Shown: positions 19,637-57,826, counted from the first letter of the stretch. The stretch: 64,000 nucleotides of DNA from Thermodesulfobacteriota bacterium (GCA_964291405.2 OZ219926.1:704001-768000), one strand, 5' to 3'. The notes: a model not told the origin generated them from the sequence alone. Made by a program: numbers and translations.

Positions 19637-19711
19637 CGCGCCCTGGAGGATTCGAACCTCCGACCTACAGATTCGTAGTCTGCCGCTCTATCCGGACTGA
19701 GCTAAGGGCGC
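19637..19711 (-). tRNA. tRNA-Arg(ACG)
   Basis: GCGCCCTTAGCTCAG...GCAGA-CTACGAA-TCTGT...GGTTCGAATCC...AGGGCGCG cloverleaf; CCA not encoded. Confidence 0.97.
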
Positions 19712-19792: not shown

Positions 19793-19881
19793 CGGAGAGG
19801 GAGGGATTCGAACCCTCGGTACGCGGTTAAACGTACACTCGCTTAGCAGGCGAGCGCCTTCGACCACTCGGCCACCTCTCC
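19793..19881 (-). tRNA. tRNA-Ser(GCT)
   Basis: GGAGAGGTGGCCGAGTGG...CTCGC-CTGCTAA-GCGAG, long variable arm, GGTTCGAATCC. Confidence 0.97.
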
Positions 19882-19971: not shown

Positions 19972-20006
19972 TTGACAATTGAAATTGAAAATGATTTTCA
20001 ATTTCA
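19972..20006 (+). promoter_or_regulatory. Fur-type operator overlapping a promoter
   Basis: TTGACA at 19972-19977, then perfect 27-bp palindrome TGAAATTGAAAAT-G-ATTTTCAATTTCA (19980-20006), matching the TGAAAATnATTTTCA Fur box described for deltaproteobacteria. Confidence 0.85.
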
Positions 20007-20009
20007 TCT

Positions 20010-20258
20010 ATGAACGAAACAGGCCAACCTTCCAAGTCTGTTACCGATGTTCACGTTGTTTATGAATGTCGGTGTCCGTGCGGCAGTCTGTTAGCCAGGC
20101 AGAACACTGACGGCATAGAACTCAAGTGTCGCCGCTGCAAGCGCGTTGTTTTCATCCCCTGGGAGACCCCTTCGACATGGCAGAGTGTCACAACGCAGTC
20201 ACCCGAGGGACAGGCAGAACAATGCGAACCTGGACAAAAAAATGGACGGCCCCAATGA
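20010..20258 (+). CDS. Small zinc-ribbon protein, Mu Com-like
   Basis: CRCPCGSLLAR...IELKCRRCKR pattern. Confidence 0.7.
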   Translation: MNETGQPSKSVTDVHVVYECRCPCGSLLARQNTDGIELKCRRCKRVVFIPWETPSTWQSVTTQSPEGQAEQCEPGQKNGRPQ

Positions 20259-20294
20259 AGCGACCGCCCACGAAAACACCAAGCGAGGTAGAAG

Positions 20295-20756
20295 TTATTT
20301 CACTCGACGAAGCGTGACCTCAGGCTCAACATTTTTCGTTTCCACCATGCCCAGGTACATCTCCAATTCTTCAATGTCCTCCTGCTCCCCTTCGATATGG
20401 TTCTCAAGCATGGAGCGTAGCGCGACATTGCCTTCGGCCAGGGCATGGGCTTCCAGATACGCCTGCATGGCTTCTTTTTCGAGCGCCAAGTCCTGCTGTA
20501 GCATTTCTTCCAGGTCGGTTGACTGGTGCACCGTCGTCCCAATCTCAACTGAGGGGACACCACCCAGGGAAACGATCTTTTGGCCAAACGTATGGGCATG
20601 GGACAGCGCGGTCTTGCTTTGGCCTTCAAAAAAATCAGCAAAAACCTTACGCCACAGACCGTTCACGAGGAGGGCATGCTGCTGGTATTGGAGGGTCGCG
20701 GCGTGTTCAAGGGAAATGGCTTTGTTCAACGCGGTAATAACTTTTTGGGTATCCAT
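20295..20756 (-). CDS. Ferritin-like (bacterioferritin-related) protein
   Basis: LNKAISLE...QY, HA...KIVSLGGVP, EEMLQQDLALE four-helix-bundle motifs; SD AAGGAGG. Confidence 0.88.
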   Translation of the reverse strand: MDTQKVITALNKAISLEHAATLQYQQHALLVNGLWRKVFADFFEGQSKTALSHAHTFGQKIVSLGGVPSVEIGTTVHQSTDLEEMLQQDLALEKEAMQAYLEAHALAEGNVALRSMLENHIEGEQEDIEELEMYLGMVETKNVEPEVTLRRVK

Positions 20757-20802
20757 GAGAGACCTCCTTGGTTACGAAAATTAATCAACCAACGATGAAT
20801 AC

Positions 20803-20831
20803 ACTATACACATCCGCATGACCCTTGTCAA
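20803..20831 (-). promoter_or_regulatory. Sigma70 promoter for ferritin-like gene
   Basis: TTGACA-17 bp-TATAGT on minus strand. Confidence 0.75.
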
Positions 20832-20856
20832 CCCTAAGTTATTGATTTTATTGAGG

Positions 20857-20917
20857 AATTGATTTTGAAAATCGTTTTCAATTAAGTACCGAAACGATTT
20901 TGAAATTCACTTTCAAT
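20857..20917. promoter_or_regulatory. Two Fur-type boxes in divergent intergenic region
   Basis: TTGAAAATCGTTTTCAA (20865-20881) and TTGAAATTCACTTTCAA (20900-20916), each preceded by an extra GATTTT hexamer. Confidence 0.8.
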
Positions 20918-20999
20918 ATGACCCGAATAACGCTCTATAGCCCGGATAACAGACCTACGACAGAGATAATCGAACAGACAAAAAGGAAGGGAGAGACTG

Positions 21000-21236
21000 A
21001 TGAGACACAATGAGAAAGGCGGGCAAGACCTACAGGATCAATTTGCGAAGGTCTTTACCAATGACGCCGGTATTACGGCGCGCGTCTGCCCACAAGGACA
21101 TGTCTATCTTCAGGTGGGACACACCTGCATTTCGTTCCGTAAAGAGCACTTTGTGGACTTGGCTCAGGTCGTCCACGCGGCAGAACGACATATCTTAGAG
21201 ACCAGCTCCCATTGGAGCTCGCACACACAACATTAG
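21000..21236 (+). CDS. Small hypothetical protein, Cys/His-containing (paralogue 1 of 3)
   Basis: Strong SD AGGAAGGGAG; aligns without gaps to 26266-26469 and to the C-terminus of 25797-26201. Confidence 0.75.
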   Translation: MRHNEKGGQDLQDQFAKVFTNDAGITARVCPQGHVYLQVGHTCISFRKEHFVDLAQVVHAAERHILETSSHWSSHTQH

Positions 21237-21365
21237 AGCGCTACGACAATCGACGATGCTGTAACAAAACACTCAACAACCTTCCCTGAGCATACAGCGG
21301 CCCGCGGTCCCAACCCAGAGCCCAGCGCAAAACGCACTCGGGTATCCGTTTCATCGGAGGGTAGA

Positions 21366-21650
21366 ATGTTCCGCGACCCGTTCATTGCTGAAGCTTGGCA
21401 ACTCCGTCACCAAGCAAACCTCGTTCCTTTCCACGTCTTCCTGTCGGCAGCCGTGTGGCTGGAAGAGCGCTATCAGCGTTCCCCATCGGCTCAGACCGCT
21501 CGCAGCATTGCTTTCCACTATTTACTGCTGGCCATGCGTCCGAACTTGGCGTCTGTCCACATGGCTGAGGAGTATGCTGCCCGTGCGGTCCGCTGGCGAG
21601 AACGGGCTGGAGAAGCGTTCACGCCTGAGCAGGCTCTCTTCTTACAATAA
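21366..21650 (+). CDS. Hypothetical helical protein
   Basis: GGAGG SD 6 nt before ATG; no recognised family. Confidence 0.65.
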   Translation: MFRDPFIAEAWQLRHQANLVPFHVFLSAAVWLEERYQRSPSAQTARSIAFHYLLLAMRPNLASVHMAEEYAARAVRWRERAGEAFTPEQALFLQ

Positions 21651-21652
21651 CA

Positions 21653-21835
21653 GTGGGGGGAGTCCTCCTCCCAAGGTCCCTAGAGCGTGTTAGGGACTTC
21701 TGGTAACCTCTTGATTTTAGTATTTTTCACGAGATCGCCCAAGACCACTCTGAGGGAGCTCCTGAATCATCCTCCGAGGAAAATGAATCGCCTAGGGATC
21801 CCTCCTCCCTAGGGACCCCCTCCCTCCTTCTCTTA
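21653..21835 (+). ncRNA. Candidate structured RNA with C-rich anti-SD loop (element 1)
   Basis: Hairpins at 21655-21672 and 21674-21699; CCTAGGGA-[TCCCTCC]-TCCCTAGG (21791-21813) followed by CCCCCTCCCTCCTTCTCTT. Confidence 0.45.
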
Positions 21836-22008
21836 TCGAACGGAGGCGTGAACAGAGACGGGCGAGCAAAACAACGTCGTGCAGAAAAAGGAGCGTACAG
21901 AATGGCTGGGCCGTAACATTTCACCAAGAGTAACGTACCGGGAATCCCGCCAGCTCTGACCGGGCAGGCGGACAACACAACAGCAGACACAAACAAGGAG
22001 CACACAGA

Positions 22009-23673
22009 ATGACCGCATCTCAACCTTTCACCATATCGACTTGGAAATGGCTGCTCGGTCTGAGCGTTTTTTTTCTCGCCCTACTTATCAGCGTGCCGAG
22101 TTTTGCCCGGATTGTCGTGACACTCGAAAATCCAGGCCAGGGAGACACGGCCTCGGGTGTGACCGCGATTTCGGGCTGGACCTATTCGACTGAAGGCGCA
22201 GACGTGACTGTCAAACTGCGTCTGAACGGAGAAACAGGCGAAGAGATCCCGTGCTGTGGTCCACGTGAGGATGTCAAATATGCTCTCTCGGACGCCCCAC
22301 TGGAAACCGGCTTTGGGCTGTTATTCAACTATGGGCGGCTTCCAGCCGGGGTCCATACCGTTGGCGTAGAAGTCAGCGCCGGCGAAGAAATCATGGTCGT
22401 CGATCATGCCGTCACCGTCGTTGTCCCCGCTGATTCTGAATTTCTCAGCGCCGTTGATCTCAGCGGGGCTTCGGCCAGCATTGAGGGGGACAAAATTGTC
22501 GTGAGCGGGGTTGAAGTCACGGATAAAGACAGTGGTGATATGATGACCGTCGATGTCGACCTCAACTATAAGACCGGTCTGCAGTCCTTTCAGGTCACGG
22601 AAGCGCAAGGGCCTGCTGGTGACCTGCATGTAGACGAAATCTTGATGGATGTCGCCCACGCCATTTTCGCCACCTATGACGCCCTGAATATGGCGGCGCA
22701 CGACCCGGATGCGGCGGGCGGCAGAGAGGTGAACGTGGACACCCTGTCCTCAGCAGTCTTTTCCTTGGTCGGGGTAAGTGCTGCTAGCGAGGCTGATGCT
22801 ATTGCCCTGTTGCCCGCCGTCCAACATGCCTGGCGGGATGCGCGTGTCCCCTGGGAGCAGAGCGAGGCGTTTCTGTTCGGGCCGGTGGACACGGACGAAC
22901 ACGACCCCTTCCTGGACACCTGGCCACTTAACGTCACTGACCTCGAAGCCATCATCGCGTCCAACGCTGACATTGATGCCGTCGAGCTTACTGATGACGT
23001 TCAGGGCTTCCATGCCCTGGAATATCTGCTGTTCCAGGATATGAACGGCAACACCGACTCAGCCGCGATTGTGAATGCCCTCCACACCGACCCACGCAGG
23101 AGAGCCTACATGCGGAGGGTGATGGGGGAGTTTACCAATCACACCCAGGCACTTCGCGACAGTTGGGATCCCGATATGGGGAATTTCGTGGCGGAACTTG
23201 CCATGGCTGGCCACGGCAGTCCCCGTATGACCTACGGCAGCGAGAGAGCGGCCATGCAAACGCTGCTCGAAGCCATGATAGGGATTGCTGCCGAGCTGCA
23301 TGACGCCAAACTGGGGGCCTCAAGCCCCGCTGAAGAAGAGTCGCGCTTCAGCAACAACTCCAGGATCGACTTCCTCAACAACGTGCGCAGTATCAACAAC
23401 GTCTATGAGGGCCGTTTTGATCAGAGCGACAGCACCTCGATGGGGGTGACGGATTTTGTCGCCAATAAAAACCCGGCCCTGGACGCGGAGGTCCGAATGG
23501 CAATCCGTGATGCCAAGGCGGCTATCATCGCCATCCCGGAGCCCTTTGGACAGAGCATCACCGCCCATCCCGATGCTGTCGCAAATGCTATCCAAGCCGC
23601 CATGGCATTGGAGACGAAGCTGGTAGAGGTTCTTGACGCTGTCAATGCGGCGGATTTCGGCCACGACCACTAA
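22009..23673 (+). CDS. Imelysin-family iron-regulated protein with N-terminal beta-rich domain
   Basis: Signal peptide; AWRDARVPWEQSEAFLFGP, GFHALEYLLF (GxHxxE), EESRFSNNS motifs. Confidence 0.88.
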   Translation: MTASQPFTISTWKWLLGLSVFFLALLISVPSFARIVVTLENPGQGDTASGVTAISGWTYSTEGADVTVKLRLNGETGEEIPCCGPREDVKYALSDAPLETGFGLLFNYGRLPAGVHTVGVEVSAGEEIMVVDHAVTVVVPADSEFLSAVDLSGASASIEGDKIVVSGVEVTDKDSGDMMTVDVDLNYKTGLQSFQVTEAQGPAGDLHVDEILMDVAHAIFATYDALNMAAHDPDAAGGREVNVDTLSSAVFSLVGVSAASEADAIALLPAVQHAWRDARVPWEQSEAFLFGPVDTDEHDPFLDTWPLNVTDLEAIIASNADIDAVELTDDVQGFHALEYLLFQDMNGNTDSAAIVNALHTDPRRRAYMRRVMGEFTNHTQALRDSWDPDMGNFVAELAMAGHGSPRMTYGSERAAMQTLLEAMIGIAAELHDAKLGASSPAEEESRFSNNSRIDFLNNVRSINNVYEGRFDQSDSTSMGVTDFVANKNPALDAEVRMAIRDAKAAIIAIPEPFGQSITAHPDAVANAIQAAMALETKLVEVLDAVNAADFGHDH

Positions 23674-23756
23674 CCGCACGATTGCAGGACCAATGAGCCG
23701 GAGTGGGGTGATCCCGCTCCGGCTACCAAGACAGGGCCTCACATTGGGAACAGTTC

Positions 23757-25640
23757 ATGCAGAAACCTCGCTTTGTCGTCTTCACCCTCACGTTGGTCAC
23801 CCTGTGTGTCTCCGTCTTCTTCCGGCATTCCTCGGCCTGGGCCACTATTACCGCGACCCTGGAAAACCCGCCCGACGGAGAACACATGTCCGGCATTCAT
23901 ACCATCTCGGGCTGGGCGTATAGCGATACGGGCGCGCCGGTCAGTGTCCGGCTGCGCATTGACGGCGAACTCCGGGAAACGATTCCGTGTTGCGGGGAAC
24001 GCAACGATGTTCAGGCCGTTTTTCCGGACGCCCCTTTGGCCACATCTTTCAGTTTGTTGTTCAATTACGGCCGGCTCAGCGCCGGGGTACATATCATTGG
24101 AATTGAGGTCCAGGCCGCTGGTGAGACCACAGTGGTTCTGGATCACGCTGTGGCGGTCGTCAAACCGGGGGACGTGGAGTTTGTGGAGACGATGGATATG
24201 ACGGCCGCCACTGTCCGCATTGAGGACAACGAGCTGCTGATAGCCGATGCGCTTGTCGAGCATATCCCGACTGACCTGCGTCTCAAATATGCCACCAGCC
24301 TCCAATCGCCGCTCCTCGTTGAAGCCAGGCCGAGCGGAGCCGATGGCAGCCAGAGCGCGGCCCTGGCCGGCGGAGCCACCACGCTTTTTGATGCCTCCAG
24401 CCAGGCGTTTGAGATGCCGGCACCGAATCTTGAGGGGGCACGGCTGGATAAGCATCTGGCTGGAGATGTCGCTTTTGGAGATAGTTTTGTCACCGCTCCT
24501 GCTCCGATCTTCAGCGGGCTGGGACCCATCTTCAATAATACTGCCTGCGATAGCTGCCATCCAAAAAACGGCCGCGGACGACCGCCGCGAGACGGCGAAC
24601 GCATGGCCTCCATGTTTCTTCGGGTCAGCCTGCCCGGCACCGATCCCTTGACGGGCGGTCCTCTGGCGGTCCCCGGTATGGGCACGCAGTTCCAGCACCT
24701 GGCCAACTTTGGAGTGCCGCCCGAAGGCGATGTTGTTATCAGCGAAGAGTTCAGCGACGGCATGTTTGGCGCTGGCGAGGCGTTTGAGTTGCGCCGTCTG
24801 CACTTTCAGATCGAGAATCCCGCCCAGCCGATTCCGGATACGGTTCTCACTTCACCACGGGTGGCTCTGCCAGTCTTTGGGCGGGGTCTGCTTGAAGCGA
24901 TTGATGAGGACACGATTCTCGGCTTAGCGGACGAGGACGACGCGGACGGCGATGGCATCTCGGGTCGGCCCAATTGGGTCTGGGACGTGGTGCGGCAGCG
25001 AACAGCGCTCGGACGCTTTGGCTGGAAGGCCAATAATCCAACCCTCTTGCAGCAAACCTTTACCGCCTACAACCAGGACATGGGCGTGACCAACCCCTTC
25101 CTTCCCCAAGAAAGCGCATTTGGTCAGATCCAGGATGACGGCTTGGCGGATGACCCTGAGATTGATCTGGAAACGGTTGATGTCGCCACTTTTTATATCC
25201 AGACACTCGCCGTGCCCGCCCGCCGCAACCTCGACGATCCGCAGGTACAGCAGGGAGAAGACCTCTTTCATGAGGCGCAGTGCACGGGCTGTCATATTCC
25301 CACTATCCGAACCGGCGTCTTAGCCGGGGTGCCGGAAGTGTCCAACCAGACCATTCATCCCTACACCGACCTGCTCCTGCACGACATGGGAGACGGCCTG
25401 GCGGATGGCCGGCCGGATTTTGTCGCAACCGGCCGGGAATGGCGGACACCGCCGTTGTGGGGCATCGGCCTGACCCTGCGCGCCCAAGGTCACACCCTGT
25501 TCCTGCACGATGGTCGGGCGCGCAATCTCACAGAGGCCATTCTGTGGCATGGCGGAGAAGCCGAAGCCGCCCGGGAGGCTTTCCGCCTGATGACCCTGGG
25601 CGAGCGCGAGGCATTATTCACCTTTCTGGAGTCGCTATAG
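23757..25640 (+). CDS. Di-haem oxidoreductase family (DHOR) protein with the same N-terminal domain
   Basis: Two CxxCH (CDSCH, CTGCH), GLGPIFN, DGDGISGRPN, GRFGWKA, TDLLLHDMG, EWRTPPLWGIG, LHDGRAR. Confidence 0.92.
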   Translation: MQKPRFVVFTLTLVTLCVSVFFRHSSAWATITATLENPPDGEHMSGIHTISGWAYSDTGAPVSVRLRIDGELRETIPCCGERNDVQAVFPDAPLATSFSLLFNYGRLSAGVHIIGIEVQAAGETTVVLDHAVAVVKPGDVEFVETMDMTAATVRIEDNELLIADALVEHIPTDLRLKYATSLQSPLLVEARPSGADGSQSAALAGGATTLFDASSQAFEMPAPNLEGARLDKHLAGDVAFGDSFVTAPAPIFSGLGPIFNNTACDSCHPKNGRGRPPRDGERMASMFLRVSLPGTDPLTGGPLAVPGMGTQFQHLANFGVPPEGDVVISEEFSDGMFGAGEAFELRRLHFQIENPAQPIPDTVLTSPRVALPVFGRGLLEAIDEDTILGLADEDDADGDGISGRPNWVWDVVRQRTALGRFGWKANNPTLLQQTFTAYNQDMGVTNPFLPQESAFGQIQDDGLADDPEIDLETVDVATFYIQTLAVPARRNLDDPQVQQGEDLFHEAQCTGCHIPTIRTGVLAGVPEVSNQTIHPYTDLLLHDMGDGLADGRPDFVATGREWRTPPLWGIGLTLRAQGHTLFLHDGRARNLTEAILWHGGEAEAAREAFRLMTLGEREALFTFLESL

Positions 25641-25691
25641 AGGTCAACATGCAGCGAACAAGCGCGCCACATATCTATGGAATATCAAGTT

Positions 25692-25765
25692 GCAGGGGGG
25701 AGGCTGCCTTCCCTGCCGCAGGCCCTGGGGTTTTCCTACCCCAACCCTGGGGCCTGCTCCCCTCG
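25692..25765 (+). ncRNA. Candidate structured RNA with C-rich loop (element 2)
   Basis: GGGGGGAG hairpin, then 15-bp stem 25718-25732/25743-25757 (two G-U pairs) closing loop TTCCTACCCC, followed by TCCCCTC. Confidence 0.45.
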
Positions 25766-25796
25766 GGCTGACATTTCGGACTAAATGAGGATTAGT

Positions 25797-26201
25797 ATGG
25801 TACGAAAAAGCGTATCCTCCCGCAGACGGCAGACTGGCTATCTCAGCGCCCGTGCCATGCTCTTGCTCTCCGAATACAGCCTGATCGTCTTTCTCTTGTG
25901 GGCGGTCGCTGTCGAGCAGACCAAATCCACCCGGCCATCAGTTGGTCAGCGACCCGGAGCCGCAGAGAGGTCGCTGAGCAGCGTAGCCTATGCAGCTCTC
26001 CCGTCCCATTTATCGCCGGCACAACACATGCCCACACAGTGGCAATGTCAGCCGGCTGAAATCTCTGGGCAACTTCATGGCGTGCCCCAGGTTGATCTGT
26101 GTCCCGACCCTGGCGTGCCCATCCAAATCGGCATGCTCCGTTTACACGTCTGTCAGCGCGACTTTTTTCAGATAGCCCAGGCTATTAGCAGCCGTGGCTG
26201 A
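25797..26201 (+). CDS. Hypothetical protein, one hydrophobic segment plus C-terminal small-paralogue domain (2 of 3)
   Basis: GAGGA SD before ATG 25797; C-terminal VDLCPDPGVPIQIGMLRLHVCQRDFFQIAQAI aligns with neighbours. Confidence 0.55.
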   Translation: MVRKSVSSRRRQTGYLSARAMLLLSEYSLIVFLLWAVAVEQTKSTRPSVGQRPGAAERSLSSVAYAALPSHLSPAQHMPTQWQCQPAEISGQLHGVPQVDLCPDPGVPIQIGMLRLHVCQRDFFQIAQAISSRG

Positions 26202-26265
26202 AACAGCGACACCGCTGAACAAAACAAACCCGGACCATGGTCCCCAAGAATAAAGGAGAACGAGT

Positions 26266-26469
26266 ATGTATGACACGCACCTATGGCAAACGCCGGATAA
26301 ACGCATCACTGTTTCTTTGTGTTCCGAAGGCTGTCTTCATGTCATGGTGGGCCGGGCCATCATTAAAATGACCCCGGAAGAATTCTTTGCTCTACAAACC
26401 GTGGTAGCCAAGGCGGCCCAGGATTTGCGGAATTCGCCCGTCCCCCAGCAAGACTCGGTAGGCCATTAA
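26266..26469 (+). CDS. Small hypothetical protein (paralogue 3 of 3)
   Basis: AAGGAG SD; ITVSLCSEGCLHVMVGRAIIKMTPEEFFAL. Confidence 0.78.
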   Translation: MYDTHLWQTPDKRITVSLCSEGCLHVMVGRAIIKMTPEEFFALQTVVAKAAQDLRNSPVPQQDSVGH

Positions 26470-26543
26470 GAGCGGTGATACGCTCGGAAGCGATCTACAG
26501 GCCCCAATAACCAACGATATCCGTCAGAATAGGGTCAGTGCGT

Positions 26544-27302
26544 TCAAATCAATCTCGGCAATATGGCGCGCCGTTGCAAAGGATAATTCTCAAACGTCTC
26601 ATGATACCATGCGTGGCGCCAGAGTGCCCTCGGCACCATGTTTGCAATCGTCCACAGGGCAAACGCGAGGCCCGGCAGCGACCAGCTCAACAGTGCGAAG
26701 CCGACCCATTCGATTATTTCGCCCAGCAGATTGGGGCACGACACGAGATTGAAAACACCGCCGCGGGGAATGACGTATTTGCCATCGTTATCCATACGCA
26801 ATCGCCGGAGACGATAGTCAGACCAGATATTTAACATGCCCCCGCTTATTGCCAACGTCAGACCGATGGCAAATCGCGGGTCAGTCACCCAATCGTTGGC
26901 ATACTCGGCGATGTATCCCATAGACCATCCCCATAAGCCGCCATTGAGTACATTGAAAACTATGCCGGACACGCACAGCATGACTCGCATCTTGCTATCG
27001 CGTCGTGGAACAATCCACGGCCATATCAGCGCTCGATGGGTGTAGTGCGCGACCCACAGAGCGACCACTGTATTGCCGACAAAATGGTGGTGCGGACTGA
27101 AAAAGTATATGCCCGGGAAGGTAAGTAGCGCGGGCGCCTCCATTACAAACCAACCCCAGCGGCTGTTGATACGAGGCCCGATACCTGTGCCCCCAACGCG
27201 CTCCACCGGGTCCCACTTCATCAAACCCGCGATCAGTACCAACGGCGACAGCCCCACCCAAATCCCGGCGAGGATCTCAAATGAGGGAAATTCCCCGCTC
27301 AC
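26544..27302 (-). CDS. Steroid 5-alpha-reductase family (3-oxo-5-alpha-steroid 4-dehydrogenase-like) membrane protein
   Basis: GWFVMEAP, HYTHRALIWP, YVIPRGGVFNLVSCPNLLGEIIEWVGFA, PRALWRHAWY; GTGA overlap with upstream stop. Confidence 0.9.
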   Translation of the reverse strand: MSGEFPSFEILAGIWVGLSPLVLIAGLMKWDPVERVGGTGIGPRINSRWGWFVMEAPALLTFPGIYFFSPHHHFVGNTVVALWVAHYTHRALIWPWIVPRRDSKMRVMLCVSGIVFNVLNGGLWGWSMGYIAEYANDWVTDPRFAIGLTLAISGGMLNIWSDYRLRRLRMDNDGKYVIPRGGVFNLVSCPNLLGEIIEWVGFALLSWSLPGLAFALWTIANMVPRALWRHAWYHETFENYPLQRRAILPRLI

Positions 27303-28360
27303 AAATACATGCCTTGCTCTTTGAACCAATTGAGGGCATCGCGGATCGATTCTTCAAGTGGTCGAGATTCGTATCCCAATTGTCTCCTCGCCGAGGACTC
27401 ATCAACAGACACCGGACAGTCGCGCAAAAGGTCAAGCGAATTTCTGGAGTAAAGAGGTGGTCGATTTTTTATCGCGGCATACAGTTGAACAAAAGGCAAA
27501 CCCGCCAGGGCCAGAAAATAGGGCATGGCGGGGCGCGTCACACGACGCCCCAGAATGTGGGAACACAGACGCGCTAGTTCAATAATCTTTGCGTATCGGC
27601 CCACGGTAAAATACACCTCGCCATGACATTCGCTCTGCCCCACCGCATTTGCGGCAGCGGCCGCCACATCTCGCATATCGCTCCACCAGAATCCCTCGTC
27701 AATGAGACATGGCAACCGCTTTTGCGCGATGGCGAGCAACATGTCACCAACGAGGGTCGGCTGCGTATCGCCGGGACCTATAAGACTCGAAGGACAGATA
27801 ACAGAGGCATTAATCCGACCACTCCTCGCCGCTTCGAGCACGCTGCTATGCGCTTCGGCTTTTGTAGCCGTATAGGGGATTTTGGAATGCTGTCCCGGCT
27901 TTGAATCAGCGTCTAAAACCCGTCCACGCAACGGGCTGAATGCGTGTATGGAACCGATGTGCACCAGCCTGCGTACGCCGTTGTCAACACACGCTTTAAT
28001 CACGTTTCGGGTACCCGTCAGGTTGACCGCCCTGACCAAATCCTCGGGATCGGTGCCAATCGTCACCATCGCAGCATTGTGTACGACGGCATCAGTATTT
28101 TGGAATGCCAAGTTCAACGATTCGACATTTCGAATATCCGCAGGCCACAATTCGACCCGCTTGTTCAGGTCATCGGGGAATTTGCGACTGCTGCCCTGAC
28201 GCGTAACAGCACGTACCGTATACCCACACCGCAGCAAGGCGCGGCATATATGGCTCCCGAGAAAACCCGCAGCACCGGTCACGGCAACGAGGCGTTTGGT
28301 GTCTTTAGGACCGTATGCCTTGTCGTTGGAATCGGACATCACCCATTCCTCAGTTATCAT
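27299..28360 (-). CDS. NAD-dependent epimerase/dehydratase (HpnA/dihydroflavonol reductase-like)
   Basis: VTGAAGFLG, VNLTGTRNV, YTATK. Confidence 0.88.
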   Translation of the reverse strand: MITEEWVMSDSNDKAYGPKDTKRLVAVTGAAGFLGSHICRALLRCGYTVRAVTRQGSSRKFPDDLNKRVELWPADIRNVESLNLAFQNTDAVVHNAAMVTIGTDPEDLVRAVNLTGTRNVIKACVDNGVRRLVHIGSIHAFSPLRGRVLDADSKPGQHSKIPYTATKAEAHSSVLEAARSGRINASVICPSSLIGPGDTQPTLVGDMLLAIAQKRLPCLIDEGFWWSDMRDVAAAAANAVGQSECHGEVYFTVGRYAKIIELARLCSHILGRRVTRPAMPYFLALAGLPFVQLYAAIKNRPPLYSRNSLDLLRDCPVSVDESSARRQLGYESRPLEESIRDALNWFKEQGMYL

Positions 28361-28534
28361 TGGTGGCGCTATTGGCCAATTCCAGGACGAGTGTCACTCC
28401 CTACGCCTTTCTCCAGACCGTGCAACACGAAGACTTGCACCGACAAATCCTCTATCCACTTGTGAACGCGTAAAAAATCTCTTCAGTGAACCTCGACATG
28501 CTACAGTATCCGTTTCAATATCCTTCGTCACTTG

Positions 28535-28692
28535 AAAAGACGAGAGCCCTTCAGGGCCAACCTCGCCGGCTGCTCCGCTGTTGGAAATGCAGAGTGGCGG
28601 TCCGGCCGGTCCTAGGTCTGTAGGGAGAAGCCCCGGGGCGGTAGGAGGGATGCCCCGGGGCCGGATGCAAGGTCCAACACCAAACCTTGCAT
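28535..28692 (-). ncRNA. Candidate structured RNA with anti-SD loop (element 3)
   Basis: Consecutive hairpins on minus strand, including GCCCCGGGGC-[ATCCCTCCTACC]-GCCCCGGGGC; G-U pairs form only on the minus strand; ends in GCCC-TGAA-GGGC plus pyrimidine tract. Confidence 0.5.
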
Positions 28693-28733
28693 AGCGAAAA
28701 CGACGAACCTGCGGCCTGTATGCTACCTTGCAC

Positions 28734-28765
28734 AAAAAAGCCCGCAGCGACGACTACTGCGGGCT
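28734..28765 (-). terminator. Intrinsic terminator
   Basis: AGCCCGCAG-9 nt-CTGCGGGC then TTTTTT on minus strand. Confidence 0.8.
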
Positions 28766-28799
28766 CGAGGCTCAAAGGCCGTGGGCCGGGTACGGATTC

Positions 28800-28860
28800 A
28801 ATTGAAATTGATATTCAATTTCAATTATGCACTTCTAGCCTTCGAGACGATATTTGTCAA
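28800..28860 (-). promoter_or_regulatory. Sigma70 promoter with Fur-type box at the predicted start site
   Basis: TTGACA-17 bp-TAGAAG, followed by palindrome AATTGAAATTGA-NNN-TCAATTTCAATT (28800-28826); core matches GATAATGATAATCATTATC at 14/19. Confidence 0.75.
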
Positions 28861-28922
28861 GTGCTGCAGTCAAGGGAATGTAGGTAGGGATATGGAGAAT
28901 GGCGTTTCTACCGAAAGAATGG

Positions 28923-29141
28923 CTACTTAGGCACCGGTACAGGCGCGCGCTCCTCTGCCTGAAAGCCCGCTTCTATGTGGCTGCCGTCACAGTACGGCTT
29001 GTTTTTGGACTTGCCACACCGACATAAATACAGTGGGTCTTTTTGTCCCCGGTACTTCCCCCCTCTCCTGTCGGTGAGACTGGTTTCTCCGCGCACTTCA
29101 TAGGGACCGTTCTTTAAGGCGCGGATGATCACTTTTGCCAT
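28923..29141 (-). CDS. CDGSH iron-sulfur domain protein
   Basis: NGPYEV...LCRCGKSKNKPYCDGSH. Confidence 0.93.
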   Translation of the reverse strand: MAKVIIRALKNGPYEVRGETSLTDRRGGKYRGQKDPLYLCRCGKSKNKPYCDGSHIEAGFQAEERAPVPVPK

Positions 29142-29266
29142 ACAGGTCGCTTTCTTTTTGGCATTCTTGGAGCCACGCTATCATTCACGAGAATACGCGC
29201 TAGGGCGGTTCTACCCCCAGCCGAGGGCGCTTTGGAATCGAACCAGAGTTCGACAGGGCTTGTTTC

Positions 29267-29293
29267 TATAATTGAAATTGACTATCAATTTCA
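29267..29293 (+). promoter_or_regulatory. -10 box plus Fur-type operator of feo operon
   Basis: TATAAT immediately followed by TGAAATTGA-CTA-TCAATTTCA. Confidence 0.82.
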
Positions 29294-29349
29294 GCTAGGA
29301 AGAGAAATCGGGCCTACCTGAACGAAATCCCCATACTTCTACGTATCTT

Positions 29350-29577
29350 ATGAAAACACTAGCCGACCTCGGCCCCGAAGAGCAGGGACGTATTCACTCC
29401 ATCACGGGCACAGACGGCATTTCCCAGCGGCTGGCTGAACTCGGCTTTACCAGCGGTCAGACCGTGCGGGTCATCCGTTTTGCGCCGTTGGGTGATCCCA
29501 TGCAAATACGTATCCGAGGCTTTTCCCTCGCGCTCCGGCTCCATGAGGCCAAACGGGTCCATCTTGCCGAACAATAA
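29350..29577 (+). CDS. feoA: Ferrous iron transport protein A
   Basis: RLAELGF...APLGDPMQIRIRGFSLALR. Confidence 0.95.
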   Translation: MKTLADLGPEEQGRIHSITGTDGISQRLAELGFTSGQTVRVIRFAPLGDPMQIRIRGFSLALRLHEAKRVHLAEQ

Positions 29578-29602: not shown

Positions 29603-31837
29603 GTGCCTCGCCCTGTCGCTATGGATGTCGAAACACCAGTTGCTTCGTCTGCTCGTACCGCCACCGCCCCCGATATCGCTTCTTATCGGGTTGCGGTGAT
29701 TGGGAATCCCAATACGGGCAAGACAACCCTCTTTAACGCCCTCACCGGACTCAGCCAACACACCGGTAATTACCCTGGAGTGACAGTCGAGAGCGCGCTC
29801 GGCGAGTTTCGTCAGAATGGCGTGCGGTTTCTCGCGGTTGACCTGCCGGGTGTTTATTCGCTGGCGCCCCGCGCTCCGGATGAGATGGTCGCCGTCTCTG
29901 TCCTGCTCGGCTCCGGCGACGAATCAGTCACACCGGATGTTGTCCTGTGCGTGGTCGATGCGACGAACCTCGATCGCAATCTGTATATTGTGACCCAGAT
30001 CATGGATATCGGGCTTCCCTGCGTCATCGCGCTGACCATGCTCGATCTGGCGGAAAAGCAGGGCATGCATATCGATATTGCTACCCTTGAAAAACGTCTG
30101 GGAGTGCGCGTTGTCCCGGTGCAGGCCACAAAACGTCGAGGGATCGATCAACTCCGTCAGACCCTGTGCGATACGCTCAACGCAGGCGTCTCCCCTTCCC
30201 GCCCTGTTGTGTTTCCCGAAGCGTTCACACAAGAGGCCCAGACGCTGGCCCAGCAACTCACCCAAGCTCATCCGACTGCCCGCTTCCCTCGCTTTCTGAT
30301 TGAACGGCTGCTGATCGACACCGGTGGCATGGTTGAGCGGGACCTCACCCGACAGCACGGAGAGCAAGTACGTGACTCCGTCCGCGCGGCTCGCCAGCGT
30401 TTAGCCGCTGACGCGGTCCAGCTCCCGCAGATGGAAGTGGATCACCGCTATGCATGGATCGCCCAGGTCGTGGCGGACGCGCGTCGCTCTTCGTCCAGCC
30501 TGGGCCGTGACCGGACCGATTGGTCCGAGCTGATTGACTCCCTCGTCACCCATAAAGTCTGGGGGCTGGTGATTTTTCTGACGGTTATGGGCGTGACCTT
30601 TCAGTCGATTTTTTCCTGGGCGCTCCCCCTTATGGACAGCATTGACACCGTCTTTTCGGCACTGGGCCCCTGGGTCGGCAGCGCGCTGCCCGAGGGTCCG
30701 CTGCAAAGCCTGATGGTCGATGGCGTAATCGGCGGAGTGGGTGCGGTTGTGGTGTTTGTCCCGCAGATTGCGATTCTGTTCGGTTTGATCGCCATCCTTG
30801 AAGATTCCGGCTATATGGCGCGAGCAGCCTTTCTCATGGATCGGGTGATGGCCGGCTTTGGACTGTCGGGGCGGAGCTTTATTCCGCTGCTCTCCTCTTT
30901 CGCCTGTGCGATTCCGGGCATTATGGCAACTCGAACGATCGATAATCAGCGTGACCGGATTGCGACCATTCTTATCGCGCCCCTGATGAGCTGTAGCGCA
31001 CGGCTACCCGTATATGTGCTGTTGATCGCGGCTTTTATCCCGGCTCAGACCGTGTGGGGCATTTTTGGCTTGCAGGGGCTGACGCTCTTTTGCATGTATT
31101 GTCTCGGCCTGTTTGTTGCCCCTCCCGTTGCCTGGATACTCAAGCGGACGCTGCTGAGCGGCGAGGCCGTGCCTTTTCTCATGGAACTGCCGCCCTTTAA
31201 GCTGCCGGCCTGGCGGGTGGTCGTGTTTCGTATGTACGACCGTAGCATGGCCTTTCTCAAGCGTGCCGGCAGCATCATCCTGGCCACGACGATCCTGGTC
31301 TGGGCCCTCTCCTATTATCCGAATCAGGATCTCGTCTCAGAGGAATTTGAGACCCGCCGGGCAACTGCCACGGAAGCCGAGTTGGCGCTGCTTGAGACTG
31401 AGGCGGCCGGCATTCGCTTACGTGAAAGTTATCTCGGACAGGCCGGACGAGCGATTGAACCGTTTGTTCAGCCCTTAGGCTGGGACTGGAAAATCGGCAT
31501 GGCCACGCTGGCGAGTTTTCCGGCTCGTGAGGTGATTATTGCCGCCCTCGGGACGATCTATAATCTGGGTGCCGGTCAGGATGAAGAGAGCGTCGAATTG
31601 CGCCAAGCCATGCGGGCGGAGCGCTGGCCGGATGGCCGACCGGTGTACACACCGGTTGTGGCGATTTCAATCATGGTCTTTTTTGCCCTGTGCTGTCAGT
31701 GCGGAGCCACCTTGGCGACCATCAAGCGGGAAACTAATTCCTGGGGCTATCCGCTCTTGACGTTTGTCTATATGACGGGTCTGGCGTATCTTGGAGCGCT
31801 GGCGGTGTATCAAATAGGCAGCCGGCTGATTGGGTAA
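29603..31837 (+). CDS. feoB: Ferrous iron transport protein B
   Basis: GNPNTGKTTLFN, NYPGVTVE, DLPGVYSL, EDSGYMAR, PLMSCSARLP; start could be ATG 29621. Confidence 0.97.
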   Translation: MPRPVAMDVETPVASSARTATAPDIASYRVAVIGNPNTGKTTLFNALTGLSQHTGNYPGVTVESALGEFRQNGVRFLAVDLPGVYSLAPRAPDEMVAVSVLLGSGDESVTPDVVLCVVDATNLDRNLYIVTQIMDIGLPCVIALTMLDLAEKQGMHIDIATLEKRLGVRVVPVQATKRRGIDQLRQTLCDTLNAGVSPSRPVVFPEAFTQEAQTLAQQLTQAHPTARFPRFLIERLLIDTGGMVERDLTRQHGEQVRDSVRAARQRLAADAVQLPQMEVDHRYAWIAQVVADARRSSSSLGRDRTDWSELIDSLVTHKVWGLVIFLTVMGVTFQSIFSWALPLMDSIDTVFSALGPWVGSALPEGPLQSLMVDGVIGGVGAVVVFVPQIAILFGLIAILEDSGYMARAAFLMDRVMAGFGLSGRSFIPLLSSFACAIPGIMATRTIDNQRDRIATILIAPLMSCSARLPVYVLLIAAFIPAQTVWGIFGLQGLTLFCMYCLGLFVAPPVAWILKRTLLSGEAVPFLMELPPFKLPAWRVVVFRMYDRSMAFLKRAGSIILATTILVWALSYYPNQDLVSEEFETRRATATEAELALLETEAAGIRLRESYLGQAGRAIEPFVQPLGWDWKIGMATLASFPAREVIIAALGTIYNLGAGQDEESVELRQAMRAERWPDGRPVYTPVVAISIMVFFALCCQCGATLATIKRETNSWGYPLLTFVYMTGLAYLGALAVYQIGSRLIG

Positions 31838-56236: not shown

Positions 56237-57826
56237 CTATGATCCGGCTCCGGCCAAGAGTGCTCCCTGGAGACCAATCTTGCCATACGTCAGACCGGCA
56301 AAGGATGGGACCGAGTGCGTTAATTCGCTAAAGACGTCAGTAATCGAAACAGAGTCCGGGCCGTCCAACTGCGTGCTCAGCAAAGCCAGCGCTTCCCAAC
56401 CGGCTTTCGCTTCTCCCGGTGGCGGGAAGGCATGAGAGAGCCGCTGGACCCGCCCGGCCTGATTCGTACACGTCCCGTCCGTCTCCACGGCCGCCGCGAT
56501 CGGCAGAATAATGTCTGCATACTCTGTCGTGCCATTATAATCCGTGTCAAGCACGATAACGGTTGTTTCGCCCAGGGCACTATCAATGCGTTCTTGGCCG
56601 AATGCCGTGACGAGGTCCGCGCCAAGAATAAAGAGGACTTTTACCTCCCCCTGCTCTACCGCAGCGAGAACCGCCTCGGCCTCGCCTCCTCCGTTCAGCA
56701 GGCCCAGACTTTTCAGTCCTTGCGTATTCGGGTTTTTGTCGGCGTGGATCAAAAAGTCATCATGAAACGCATCGGCCGGAGACCATGACAAGCCTGCCGT
56801 GTGTGTGGAGCCGATTTGCTCTCTGAGGAGACGGGAAAGAAGAAAGGCTTCTTCGTTGGTTGCCTTGGCACCAATAACCGCCGCGACCGCATCCGCACCA
56901 TGCTCGTCTTGGGTCGAACGGACGGCTTGTGCCACCTTTTTTCCAGCCTCGTCCCACGAAGCGACTGTAAAAGACGATTCACTGCGGACTAAGGGGGTGG
57001 GAATCCGGCTTTCCTGTTGGAAGGACTTATACCAATGCCGCCCCTCATCACACATCCAGTACGCATTGACGTCGAGATTTTGGCGCGGACGAAACCGAAA
57101 GACCTCGCCCCGCCGATGGTAGATATCGATATTGCAGCCAGTGGCGCAGCGGGTGCAGGTTGAGGGCGTTTTTTCAAGATACCAGACCCGGGACTTGAAG
57201 CGGAAATCCTTGCTCGTCAGTGCCCCCACCGGGCACACATCAACAACATTGCCGGAGTAGGGATTGTCGAGTTGCTTCCCAGGAAAGAGACTGATGCGGG
57301 AATGATCCCCGCGTTCAAAAATGCCTAACTCGCCAGTCTGGGTTATTTCATCGCAGAAGCGGGTACAGCGGGCACATAGAATGCAGCGCTCTTCGTCGAG
57401 CACAACTTCAGGTCCAAGGTCAACCACTTTCCCCTTATGCACCTTGGCTTCAAGCTGCATCTCGCTCTTATAGGCACCGTACAGCATGTAATAGTCTTGG
57501 AGCTTGCACTCGCCAGCCTGGTCGCAGATGGGGCAATCGATCGGGTGGTTAATGAGAAGAAATTCGAGCACCGCGGCTTGGGCATGTTTCGCTCTTTCAC
57601 TGGTGGTTTTTACCACCATCCCATCGGCAACACGTGTATTACAGCCAATCTGAAGTTTGGGAACGTTTTCGATCTCGACCAGGCACATGCGGCAGTTGCC
57701 CGATATGCTGAGTCCGGGATGGTAACAGTAGTGCGGCACTTCAATGCCGACCTGTTCGGCAGCCTGGATGACGTTGAGGCCATCTTCGACCGTCACTTCT
57801 TGACCATCGATTTCAAGTGTTGGCAT
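56237..57826 (-). CDS. nuoG: NADH-quinone oxidoreductase subunit G (short form)
   Basis: PHYCYHP, GNCRMCLVE, NHPIDCPICDQAGECKLQ, RCILCARC, CPVGALT. Confidence 0.9.
   Translation of the reverse strand: MPTLEIDGQEVTVEDGLNVIQAAEQVGIEVPHYCYHPGLSISGNCRMCLVEIENVPKLQIGCNTRVADGMVVKTTSERAKHAQAAVLEFLLINHPIDCPICDQAGECKLQDYYMLYGAYKSEMQLEAKVHKGKVVDLGPEVVLDEERCILCARCTRFCDEITQTGELGIFERGDHSRISLFPGKQLDNPYSGNVVDVCPVGALTSKDFRFKSRVWYLEKTPSTCTRCATGCNIDIYHRRGEVFRFRPRQNLDVNAYWMCDEGRHWYKSFQQESRIPTPLVRSESSFTVASWDEAGKKVAQAVRSTQDEHGADAVAAVIGAKATNEEAFLLSRLLREQIGSTHTAGLSWSPADAFHDDFLIHADKNPNTQGLKSLGLLNGGGEAEAVLAAVEQGEVKVLFILGADLVTAFGQERIDSALGETTVIVLDTDYNGTTEYADIILPIAAAVETDGTCTNQAGRVQRLSHAFPPPGEAKAGWEALALLSTQLDGPDSVSITDVFSELTHSVPSFAGLTYGKIGLQGALLAGAGS

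Follow-up and report, generated by a model that had tools for sequence, protein, structure and literature searches.

IsrR of Staphylococcus is an RNA of about 174 nt with several stem-loops, which has a Fur box in its promoter and another just past the transcription start, and whose conserved C-rich single-stranded loop regions pair with Shine-Dalgarno regions; it is conserved at the genus level, and its chaperone dependency differs from that of RyhB, PrrF and FsrA (PMC9410917). FsrA of Bacillus subtilis, according to the same source, is a Fur-repressed RNA that uses a C-rich motif to bind Shine-Dalgarno sequences and has FbpA, FbpB and FbpC, all small proteins, as partners (PMC9410917).

We analysed a stretch of 64,000 nt (the window) from the genome of an uncultured Binatia bacterium (4.95 Mb, 58% GC), in which an initial annotation had singled out three dispersed hairpins with C/U-rich loops (E1, E2 and E3) as a candidate family of iron-sparing small RNAs. 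That proposal is partly supported: a conserved, Fur-boxed unit around E3 and the kinship of E2 and E1 with it stood, whereas the targets it named did not. On sequence grounds, E3 is most likely part of a conserved non-coding gene behind a Fur site, a candidate iron-repressed small RNA, and E1 and E2 look like diverged copies of an E3-type core inside the neighbouring iron-uptake operon. By analogy, we read the E3 unit as a new small RNA under Fur repression whose C-rich loop is of the anti-Shine-Dalgarno type, and which would correspond in function to IsrR and FsrA. The in silico support covers its promoter, Fur box, conservation, covarying pairing, strand, duplication and independence from downstream genes, as well as the kinship of E2 with E3.

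Hairpins, repeats and known RNA families

All three hairpins lie where they had been placed, and the predicted folds match those described. E1 (plus strand) has the stem CCUAGGGA/UCCCUAGG at 21791-21813, the loop UCCCUCC and a C/U-rich tail to 21834; E2 (plus strand, 25718-25757) has 15 pairs including two G-U, the loop UUCCUACCCC and the tail UCCCCUC; and E3 (minus strand, 28661-28630) has the 10-bp stem GCCCCGGGGC, the loop AUCCCUCCUACC and the tail UUCUCCCUAC. The loops of E1 and E3 share the word AUCCCUCCU and those of E2 and E3 the word UCCUACC, and GGGGGGAG hairpins follow stop codons at 21654-21673 (E1) and 25691-25717 (E2). Folded alone, each element was equalled by some shuffled sequences, 13/200 for E1 (z -1.76), 6/200 for E2 (z -2.09) and 41/200 for E3 (z -0.74). 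Judged in this way the single short elements are unremarkable, and it is the comparative evidence, itself drawn from sequence, that lifts them above chance.

Of 1767 perfect hairpins on contig C3 (stem of at least 8 bp, loop of 4-16 nt), 14 have a loop with at least 80% C/U and the word CCTCC; these include E1 and E3, which lie 6.8 kb apart, and E2 does not qualify here, since its stem contains G-U pairs. The 12 further hairpins of this type in the genome, the many shuffles that fold as well as the short elements, and the weak, local match of E1 in the studied genome to the family model described below (8.6-8.9 bits) could be taken to mean that all three are chance GC-rich hairpins or plain terminators with meaningless C/U-rich loops. 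We disfavour this explanation and consider it very improbable: in 4.95 Mb the model hits nothing but E3 and E2, copies occupy corresponding places throughout the genus, their stems covary while their loops stay invariant, and a perfect Fur box and a promoter precede E3. Plain intrinsic termination was rejected separately for E1, E2 and E3, whose C/U-rich tails lack a U-run and whose loops are conserved, yet UUUUU follows the E3 hairpin in two relatives (G016 and G012). Nor do the hairpins behave as a genome-wide generic repeat (two hits for one covariance model and two real hits for the other, see below), and blastn with the E3 unit found one copy in the genome, which speaks against an interspersed REP- or MITE-like element. 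The family is present in 19/28 genomes of the genus and once, weakly, in a sister genus; among 132 genomes of other Binatia it was found in none.

An Rfam search gave no match for E1, E2 or E3. At the gathering score it returned nothing over the window except a cobalamin riboswitch and two tRNAs, and at E up to 5 the region 20700-29400 gave only noise, such as Trp_leader, whose 20 bits fall short of its gathering score of 41. The sX13 RNA of the Xanthomonadaceae (Rfam RF02232) is a small RNA with C-rich loops, for which we know of no Fur control. Its model does not match E1, E2 or E3 at E up to 5. Two other loci of the genome match it over its full length, with 26.5 and 25.6 bits that remain below the gathering threshold of 50, which suggests that this organism employs C-rich-loop small RNAs repeatedly. 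Besides E1-E3, the genome holds a pair of C-rich-loop, small RNA-like loci with canonical terminators.

The E3 unit and its surroundings

E3 lies behind a Fur-boxed promoter, as the initial annotation had proposed; the promoter is conserved and sigma-70-like, its Fur box is a perfect palindrome, and E3 follows a short way downstream. All belong to a minus-strand unit (about 28866-28612) that comprises a TTGACA promoter, the palindrome, a nested terminator hairpin (T1) and two further hairpins (H2 and H3). The -35 box TTGACA (28861-28866) is identical in 15/15 aligned copies, and the similarity among paralogous copies starts there. The putative -10-like hexamer TAGAAG (28838-28843), 17 nt 3' of the -35 box, was read from the alignments, in which relatives have TAAACT or TAAAAA; a consensus promoter scan did not call it. 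Seven nucleotides further on, the Fur-box-like palindrome TTGAAATTGAnnnTCAATTTCAA (28802-28824) spans the predicted transcription start with 0 mismatches to the local consensus and 19/22 columns invariant across the 15 copies. The unit thus carries, in this palindrome at its promoter and start, a predicted Fur site of the kind that marks the Fur-repressed class of small RNAs.

A gene for a CDGSH iron-sulfur protein (28923-29141, minus strand; Pfam PF09360, 1e-17) immediately precedes the E3 promoter in the same orientation, and T1 (28730-28766, minus strand), a hairpin with a U-run within the 5' part of the unit, is probably its terminator. T1 behaves as a plain intrinsic terminator, with a stem preserved through G-U changes and a freely varying loop. 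Its U-run is present in 16/16 orthologous copies, all with the CDGSH gene upstream, and degenerate in the 4 paralogous copies, which lack that gene; G016 and G012 have neither CDGSH nor T1. Downstream of T1, a conserved linker, GCCGCAGGUUCGYCGUUUUC... (28692-28720, minus strand; mean majority fraction 0.89 against 0.53 in the preceding stretch), leads to H2 (28666-28691, minus strand), which has a 7-bp stem (UGCAAGG/CCUUGCA) with one compensatory AU to GC change and the near-invariant loop UUUGGUGUUGGR. H3, which is E3 itself (28629-28662, minus strand), has an 11-bp stem in the alignments, a closing pair that changes from C-G to U-A among copies, and a loop core, UCCCUCCUA, identical in 15/15. 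The C/U-rich tail that follows (28612-28628, minus strand) is the likely 3' end, and paralog similarity stops about 12 nt after H3.

The 15 aligned copies (11 orthologous and 4 paralogous, since four relatives carry a second copy) all retain TTGACA, the Fur palindrome and UCCCUCCUA. On the minus strand 270/270 cells pair, with compensatory changes at 3 pairs, a count matched by 1/500 shuffles, and pairing drops to 28-61% of cells in slid controls; covariation events are few because the relatives are close kin. When E2 sequences are included, 98.4% of 575 cells pair and 6 pairs change on both sides (0/500 shuffles), in an alignment of 32 sequences fitted to a covariance model. The stems therefore keep pairing through compensatory and G-U changes, and the G-U cells pair on the minus strand only, which identifies the C-rich strand as the RNA strand. 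Loop conservation in relatives, on which the small RNA proposal depended, was found for both H2 (11/14 columns invariant in the 15 copies) and H3 (9/12); the loop of T1 (1/13) serves as an internal control and argues for selection on the H2 and H3 loop sequences. Folded in its entirety, the unit reaches -92.3 kcal/mol (z -5.23), a value attained by 0/200 shuffles, and indels among copies argue against coding. We conclude that the E3 unit is conserved, structured, non-coding and duplicated in four relatives.

The position of T1, a good terminator between the promoter and the conserved core, counts against reading the unit as a small RNA. An attenuator, moreover, usually has just this layout, a leader terminator with structured RNA behind it, and the modules could be cis-acting mRNA elements (5' leaders, or 3'-end and intercistronic hairpins serving the stability, processing or translation of adjacent Fur-regulated genes) rather than trans-acting RNAs, with the E3 unit as an orphaned leader or long 5' UTR. 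This would suit E1 and E2, which lie within an operon directly 3' of stop codons, and E3 itself, which is followed here, on the same strand, by a conserved stretch of about 270 nt and a 3-beta-HSD-like gene. In the sister genus (G136), an ORF of 66 aa lies behind the same series of promoter, Fur box, T1-like hairpin and module, so that the module is a leader there, and a second module follows the ORF. However, nothing on the same strand follows the unit in the 4 paralogous copies, which face a convergent ABC-transporter gene or a transposase, in G005 and G006, where it is convergent with ORF67, or in G016 and G012. Across 8 genomic contexts the neighbours are convergent or unrelated, which argues against a 5' UTR, and invariance extends to the loops as well as the stems.

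An independent 3' end is supported by the contig of run X4, which joins 26473 to 28620 and thus lacks exactly 26474-28619, downstream genes included, and by the U-run directly after H3 in G016 and G012; it is opposed by T1 upstream of the core, by H3 lacking a U-run in the studied genome and by the leader arrangement in G136. On balance we think a cis-acting role rather unlikely, and give about an even chance to E3 being the 3' hairpin of a stand-alone Fur-repressed small RNA gene of about 220 nt on the minus strand (~28832 to ~28612).

Modules in the neighbouring operon

Fur-box-like palindromes cluster around these elements, with 6/12 of the genome-wide sites of up to 4 mismatches at 19979-29272 of the window. 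The motif also precedes feoA, dps/ORF78, exbB and a PepSY_TM gene, and the genome encodes two Fur-family genes. One site (29272-29294, 1 mismatch) lies between CDGSH (minus) and feoA-feoB (plus), whose products were identified by Pfam. Two weaker ones (20859-20922, 4 mismatches each) lie between dps (minus) and an operon of ORF78, ORF94, an imelysin-like gene and a di-haem oxidoreductase (DHOR) gene (plus), in a stretch that is conserved more widely than the rest of the region. The imelysin-like gene (22009-23673, plus strand; Pfam PF09375, 1.7e-51) and the DHOR gene (23757-25640, plus strand; Pfam PF06537, 2.7e-106) are flanked by E1 and E2. For ORF78, ORF94, ORF138 and ORF67, searches of Pfam and NCBIfam gave 0 hits each. 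The one RNA run that touches the stretch has contigs on parts of dps, ORF94, imelysin and other coding sequence, and is uninformative on E1, E2 and E3, which it leaves uncovered.

The annotation had supposed the three elements to be paralogous, and this holds for E2, a diverged copy of the two-hairpin core, and more weakly for E1, a third copy recognisable in relatives only. A covariance model from E3 copies alone (R1) has 2 hits at E up to 10 in the whole 4.95 Mb genome, E3 and E2, the latter with 29.4 bits (E 0.002 per genome). The E2 module (25661-25762, plus strand), in the 3' region of the DHOR gene, consists of an H2-like hairpin (25691-25717), an H3-like hairpin (25718-25757) and a tail, and lies at the same place in relatives. 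A widened model built with E2 rows (R2) scores it at 67.1 bits and gives 2 real hits on the genome plus 3 at E 0.57-7.7. The loop of E2 resembles an anti-Shine-Dalgarno sequence in the studied genome, as flagged, but reads UUUGACUACCCCU in about half of the relatives, and so is not of that kind there.

The E1 module begins directly 3' of the ORF94 stop codon with the hairpin GGGGGGAG.../...CCUCCUCCC (21654-21673, plus strand). Its second hairpin, with the C/U-rich tail (21791-21834, plus strand), has 8 bp here and 9-10 bp with the loop AAUCCCUCCUCG in relatives, one of which (G002) shows a compensatory stem change. Intact modules score 20-25.9 bits with R2 in 6/6 relatives, and the E1 match would rank as borderline in a search of a whole genome. 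A 111-bp insertion (21685-21795) with CCTAG at both flanks splits the module in the studied genome specifically; the flanks are contiguous in 11 relatives, and the insert is single-copy here, with similar stretches elsewhere in relatives. This insertion had gone unseen in the initial annotation.

Proposed working and known systems

As to transcription, the response to iron, the targets of base pairing and what E1 and E2 may do, we infer the following. With plentiful iron, Fur would occupy the palindrome over the transcription start and block transcription; when iron is scarce the RNA would be made, some transcripts probably ending at T1 and others running on through H2 and H3. The working parts would be the two sequence-invariant loops, UUUGGUGUUGG in H2 and AUCCCUCCUACC in H3, the latter pairing together with the C/U-rich tail with Shine-Dalgarno regions so as to block translation without Hfq. 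E2 and E1, as diverged H2-H3 cores after the DHOR and ORF94 stop codons of the neighbouring Fur-controlled operon, may be released as 3'-derived RNAs or act in cis. Iron sparing by this family is suggested by analogy only.

Targets were scanned by duplex energy against 4794 start regions, a crude prediction. The two proposed for the E3 loop proved ordinary (dps rank 2908, nuoF rank 2804), and this crude scan gave no enrichment of iron proteins. The best 19 H3-loop targets include one clear iron protein, cytochrome c', and PurF, which we take to be a possible one; duplexes of this loop average -11.7 kcal/mol across the whole set of start regions, so that in this 58% GC genome it pairs with almost any ribosome-binding site. 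For the H2 loop, 14 of the best 16 hits are annotated and 3 of these are iron-sulfur proteins: NuoG (rank 16), GltB, whose start the gene caller had misplaced, and a Rieske oxygenase, matched by a perfect 11-mer at +7. An iron-containing redox enzyme was also hit, and ten-mer matches to the loop occur at about chance frequency.

With no convincing mRNA target set from these scans, the loops might instead be sites for a protein, for instance one of the small proteins encoded next to them or an RNA-binding protein that responds to iron. Variable stems that carry invariant loops would fit this, as would the position of the modules beside the small Fur-regulated ORF78, ORF94, ORF138 and ORF67, which belong to no family. 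Yet the neighbouring genes have no visible RNA-binding domain, genes for CsrA and Hfq were not found in the genome, and the loop sequences of E1, E2 and E3 are unlike one another, so we hold protein binding to be improbable.

Read as a small RNA, the E3 unit differs from RyhB and PrrF1/PrrF2, which depend on Hfq, in belonging to a genome in which an Hfq gene was not found, and their seeds are not C-rich, unlike the H3 loop; E1-E3 also lack an Rfam match to them. It has no homology with FsrA, and small Fur-linked ORFs do occur near E1-E3, with nothing tying them to the RNA. From IsrR it differs in lacking similarity at the sequence or Rfam level, in having one clear C-rich loop and a G/U-rich loop instead of three C-rich regions, in the terminator nested in its 5' part, in the diverged copies of its core inside a neighbouring operon, and in its host, an uncultured Binatia bacterium of 58% GC in which G-rich targets are not rare. 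PrrH is a long form produced by read-through of an internal terminator, and the succession of T1 and a conserved core in the E3 unit recalls it. IsrR is matched by the E3 unit in the Fur box at the start, a comparable predicted size (about 220 nt), the conserved C-rich loop and the genus-level spread.

Three C/U-rich hairpins within an iron locus

The three hairpins described in the initial annotation are all there exactly as it gave them: E1 on the plus strand (21791-21813; an 8-bp stem, the loop UCCCUCC and a C/U-rich tail to 21834), E2 on the plus strand (25718-25757; 15 pairs including two G-U, the loop UUCCUACCCC and the tail UCCCCUC) and E3 on the minus strand (28661-28630; the 10-bp stem GCCCCGGGGC, the loop AUCCCUCCUACC and the tail UUCUCCCUAC). 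A hairpin of the GGGGGGAG type precedes both E1 and E2, shortly past a stop codon. The predicted folds themselves hold up, and taken singly they are unexceptional against shuffled sequences (z of -1.76 for E1, -2.09 for E2 and -0.74 for E3). Hairpins of the E1 and E3 kind are nevertheless rare in the genome: among 1767 perfect hairpins with stems of at least 8 bp in contig C3, only 14 combine a loop of at least 80% C/U with CCTCC, and E1 and E3 are among these 14. No Rfam family matched at the gathering score, nor in a search of 20700-29400 that admitted E-values up to 5; the E1/E2/E3 module lies outside every described RNA family and would be a new example of a familiar type of regulator. A second pair of sRNA-like loci occurs elsewhere on the minus strand of this contig (C3:2384627-2384693 and C3:2429703-2429775). 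In each of them AT-rich sequence precedes a hairpin with the loop UCUCCCCG or UCCUCCCCGU, which is followed by a canonical terminator with the loop UUUCCCCUCCUUU; the two are identical at 39/44 positions over the terminator. Aligned to the entire sX13 model of Rfam (RF02232), they reach 26.5 and 25.6 bits, short of the gathering score of 50.

The region around the elements is an iron locus in a genome of 4.95 Mb and 57.8% GC. It holds a dps/ferritin-like gene on the minus strand (20295-20756), an imelysin-like gene (22009-23673), a di-haem oxidoreductase gene (23757-25640), the four small ORFs of a putatively Fur-controlled operon (21000-21236, 21366-21650, 25785-26201 and 26266-26469), none of which has a Pfam or NCBIfam family, a pair of steroid-5-alpha-reductase-like and 3-beta-HSD-like genes on the minus strand (within 26474-28619), a CDGSH iron-sulfur protein gene also on the minus strand (28923-29141), and feoA (29350-29577) and feoB (29603-31837). 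A 23-bp palindrome, TTGAAATTGAnnnTCAATTTCAA, occurs genome-wide at 12 sites with at most four mismatches, six of them in window positions 19979-29272; the remaining sites precede exbB-like, PepSY_TM and nitroreductase genes, and two are near no informative gene. Because of this gene context and its likeness to the classical Fur box, the palindrome is treated here as a putative Fur site; two Fur-family proteins are encoded in the genome, a Fur gene lying at C3:1290964-1291326.

Several other features of the stretch deserve mention in their own right. The imelysin-like and di-haem oxidoreductase proteins have at their N-termini a common domain, about 190 aa long (22009-22600 and 23757-24340; 47% identical, E 4e-55), without a Pfam match. 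Between E1 and the imelysin start, inspection by eye revealed a mini-ORF of four codons (21885-21917; AAGGAG, 8 nt, then ATG GCT GGG CCG TAA), with a ribosome-binding site and spacing like those of the imelysin gene, in a stretch conserved in relatives. Among the small family-less ORFs found near modules, clear homologues of ORF67 occur both in relatives and in G136, a genome of a sister genus; a kinship with ORF78, suspected by eye, was dropped when BLASTP gave no alignment. A cobalamin riboswitch (2519-2721, 96.3 bits) and two tRNA genes (19637-19711 and 19793-19881) lie on the minus strand.

A conserved unit around the third hairpin

Aligning 11 orthologous and four paralogous copies, obtained from searches of relatives, places E3 within a larger minus-strand unit. 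This begins with an invariant -35 box, TTGACA (28866-28861), followed after 17 nt by a -10-like hexamer and by a perfect palindrome (28824-28802), the predicted Fur box, which spans the predicted start. After a variable stretch come a canonical terminator hairpin with its U-run (T1, 28766-28738), a conserved linker, a hairpin with the loop UUUGGUGUUGGR (H2, 28691-28666), the hairpin that is E3 itself (H3, 28662-28629) and a C/U-rich tail. In the paralogous copies similarity runs from the -35 box to about 12 nt beyond H3. The stems covary on the minus strand, as the initial annotation had proposed to check: all 270 of the 270 stem cells are paired and three pairs carry compensatory changes, as many as were reached in only 1 of 500 shuffles, and slid controls were only 28-61% paired. 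In a more distant copy, that of G038, the outer H2 pair is changed on both sides. The 221-nt unit folds at -92.3 kcal/mol, with a z of -5.23.

One-sided stem changes leave G-U pairs on the minus strand and would be A-C mismatches on the other, so that the C-rich strand is the RNA strand. This also bears on a CsrA sponge with GGA loops transcribed from the opposite strand, which we rule out on these G-U changes and because a CsrA gene, like an Hfq gene, was not found in the genome. A leader peptide in the 5' part of the unit was likewise ruled out, since there is neither an AUG nor a ribosome-binding site; the sole frame seen by eye has a UUG start and 8 codons, and lies inside the Fur box. The conservation of loops among relatives, on which the original proposal hinged, is evident: whereas the T1 loop varies freely (1/13 columns invariant), the loops of H2 (11/14) and H3 (9/12) are nearly fixed, which argues for selection on the loop sequence itself. 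Further distant copies strengthen the case: that of G003 has the loop CCGCCUUCUG; two others (G016 and G012) have UACCCUCCAA, keep TTGACA and the Fur box without T1, and end H3 with UUUUU, which makes it a true intrinsic terminator.

Such a unit could also be the leader of a downstream gene, and the neighbourhood of its copies speaks to this. Of the four paralogous copies, three are followed by a convergent ABC-transporter ATPase gene and one by a transposase gene; in G005 and G006 the ORF67 gene, also convergent, comes next, and in G016 and G012 there are convergent genes that are unrelated. A contig of the sequencing run X4, from a relative, joins 26473 to 28620 and thus lacks the minus-strand gene pair that lies beyond E3 in the genome under study, the break falling exactly at the end of the unit. 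In most genomes, then, the unit is probably no 5' UTR. In a genome of a sister genus (G136, locus L105, 1000-1620), TTGACA and a Fur box come first, then a T1-like terminator and the module, a 66-aa ORF and a second module, and after these another Fur box and feoA, with an ORF67 homologue and its own Fur box upstream; since the module there stands before the 66-aa ORF, it can be a leader too. Altogether, E3 is a candidate for a new Fur-repressed sRNA, well supported in silico. As side observations on gene order, the genus varies in whether it carries the steroid-5-alpha-reductase-like and 3-beta-HSD-like pair, which the X4 contig lacks, and in G136 the two modules flank one small ORF.

The position of T1 is a weak point of the sRNA reading. 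The CDGSH gene is directly upstream, on the same strand, in 16/16 orthologous copies, all with an intact T1 U-run; the four paralogous copies have no CDGSH gene and a degenerate U-run, and both CDGSH and T1 are absent from G016 and G012. T1 can accordingly be read as the terminator of the CDGSH gene, with the candidate sRNA promoter nested between the two. As T1 lies between promoter and core, a full-length RNA in this genome would need read-through. Within 28730-29141, no separate terminator of the CDGSH gene precedes the putative sRNA promoter; with T1 downstream of that promoter, a gene's terminator is nested in the transcription unit that comes next.

Kinship of the operon-borne hairpins and spread of the module

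A covariance model trained on the core of the E3 copies alone (R1) gave two matches in the whole genome at E up to 10: E3 itself (125.5 bits) and, with 29.4 bits and an E of 0.002 per genome, the plus-strand stretch 25661-25762, which is E2 plus the hairpin preceding it. That the same hairpins might recur genome-wide, which the initial annotation had reckoned with, is therefore not borne out. In the alignment UGCAGGG/CCCUGC corresponds to H2 and GGCCCUGGGGU...ACCCUGGGGCC to H3, and the match recurs at the orthologous place in 9 relatives; the E2 loop is UUUGACUACCCCU in about half of these, so that only CUACCCC is kept. By these sequence comparisons E2 appears to be a diverged copy of E3 within the operon. 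Only about 1 kb separates the two in G005, G006 and G035.

E1, which is disrupted in the genome under study, is probably a third copy. A model trained on E3 and E2 rows together (R2) aligns with the entire E1 module in 6/6 relatives tested, at 20-25.9 bits (E 1e-4 to 3e-3 when 87.6 kb was searched, 2.8e-5 to 8.4e-4 with 23.6 kb). These values would be borderline at whole-genome scale, and a class-wide R2 search at E 0.001 did not have E1 among its matches, so that E1 is a probable rather than a proven member. Its low score here (8.6-8.9 bits, a local match) is explained by a 111-bp insertion (21685-21795), with CCTAG at its flanks, which cuts the module within the 5' arm of the second hairpin. 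The flanks are contiguous in 11 relatives, in which the uninterrupted hairpin is GUCCCUAGG-GAAUCCCUCCUCG-CCUAGGGAC, with a compensatory stem change in G002. A MITE was considered for the insertion and set aside, as it is single-copy in this genome and no terminal inverted repeats were seen; several relatives carry stretches 73-93% similar to it elsewhere, at one to three sites.

R1 matches 19/28 genomes of the genus, and 16/20 of the high-quality ones. Under stricter filters than this count, R2 matches 12/151 genomes sampled across the class: besides the genome under study, 10/14 in the genus, 1/3 in a sister genus (31.8 bits) and 0/132 in 18 other families. Scanned for as a pattern, the conserved core turned up in 17 stretches, every one in a Candidatus Binatia MAG record. 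A narrow spread is typical of sRNAs, and the near confinement of the module to one genus is a distribution of this kind.

Predicted targets and possible roles

The initial annotation had proposed iron sparing, with dps and nuoF as possible targets, and this part of its interpretation found no support, in contrast to the standing of E3 as candidate sRNA, E2 as diverged copy and E1 as probable copy. Our target scan was crude, with our own ORF-based gene calls and duplex energies over 4794 start regions. The H3 loop forms duplexes with nearly any start region (mean -11.7 kcal/mol), and dps and nuoF, at ranks 2908 and 2804 of 4794, are unremarkable. The best match of this loop is rpoB; the best 19 of 4794 include two luciferase-like monooxygenases, Cas5, MazE and the like, with cytochrome c' as the only clear iron protein and PurF as a possible one. 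For the H2 loop there is a perfect 11-nt match at +7 of a Rieske oxygenase (C3:3117464), NuoG (56237-57826) at rank 16, and a 10-mer match at +43 of an iron-containing redox enzyme; of the 14 annotated among the top 16, only three are iron-sulfur proteins, and matches of 10 nt are as frequent as by chance. The Rieske site is exact in 13/16 genomes with the sRNA candidate and also in 2/5 without it, thus tracking phylogeny, and is a lead only. Iron proteins were not clearly enriched among the predicted targets of either loop over the 4794 start regions; with the named targets mid-genome, iron sparing is an analogy and not a result. The only RNA run with any of the stretch, X1 (a sponge metatranscriptome kept as contigs, with 5% of sampled words), has no contig over E1, E2 or E3, which speaks neither for nor against expression.

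A more elaborate reading, which we consider improbable, is that one RNA module exists in three forms in one Fur regulon. The free form would be the sRNA gene E3, and the embedded forms E1 and E2, after cistrons of the iron-uptake operon, would either be excised to add to the supply of the regulator or serve as decoys for it. T1, shared with the upstream CDGSH gene, would determine how much of the sRNA is short and how much full-length. If true, an uncultured sponge-associated phylum would have an iron circuit that links an sRNA, mRNA-borne copies and a shared terminator.

Fur-repressed sRNAs are central to the iron economy of well-studied bacteria, and each lineage has made its own. To our knowledge none is known for Binatia, a class of which no member is in culture; among the matches listed by a full-text literature search that combined Binatia with small RNA or Fur, no paper names Binatia, which is no proof. 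The E3 unit is a concrete, synthesisable candidate whose promoter, operator and conserved loops are defined, and a handle on iron regulation in sponge- and soil-associated Binatia, in which operon-borne sRNA-like modules can be compared with their free-standing copy. Its closest analogues are IsrR and FsrA. According to PMC9410917, IsrR has one Fur box in its promoter and another just past its start, and several stem-loops and a terminator, its C-rich loops pairing with Shine-Dalgarno regions, and FsrA binds Shine-Dalgarno sequences through a C-rich motif.
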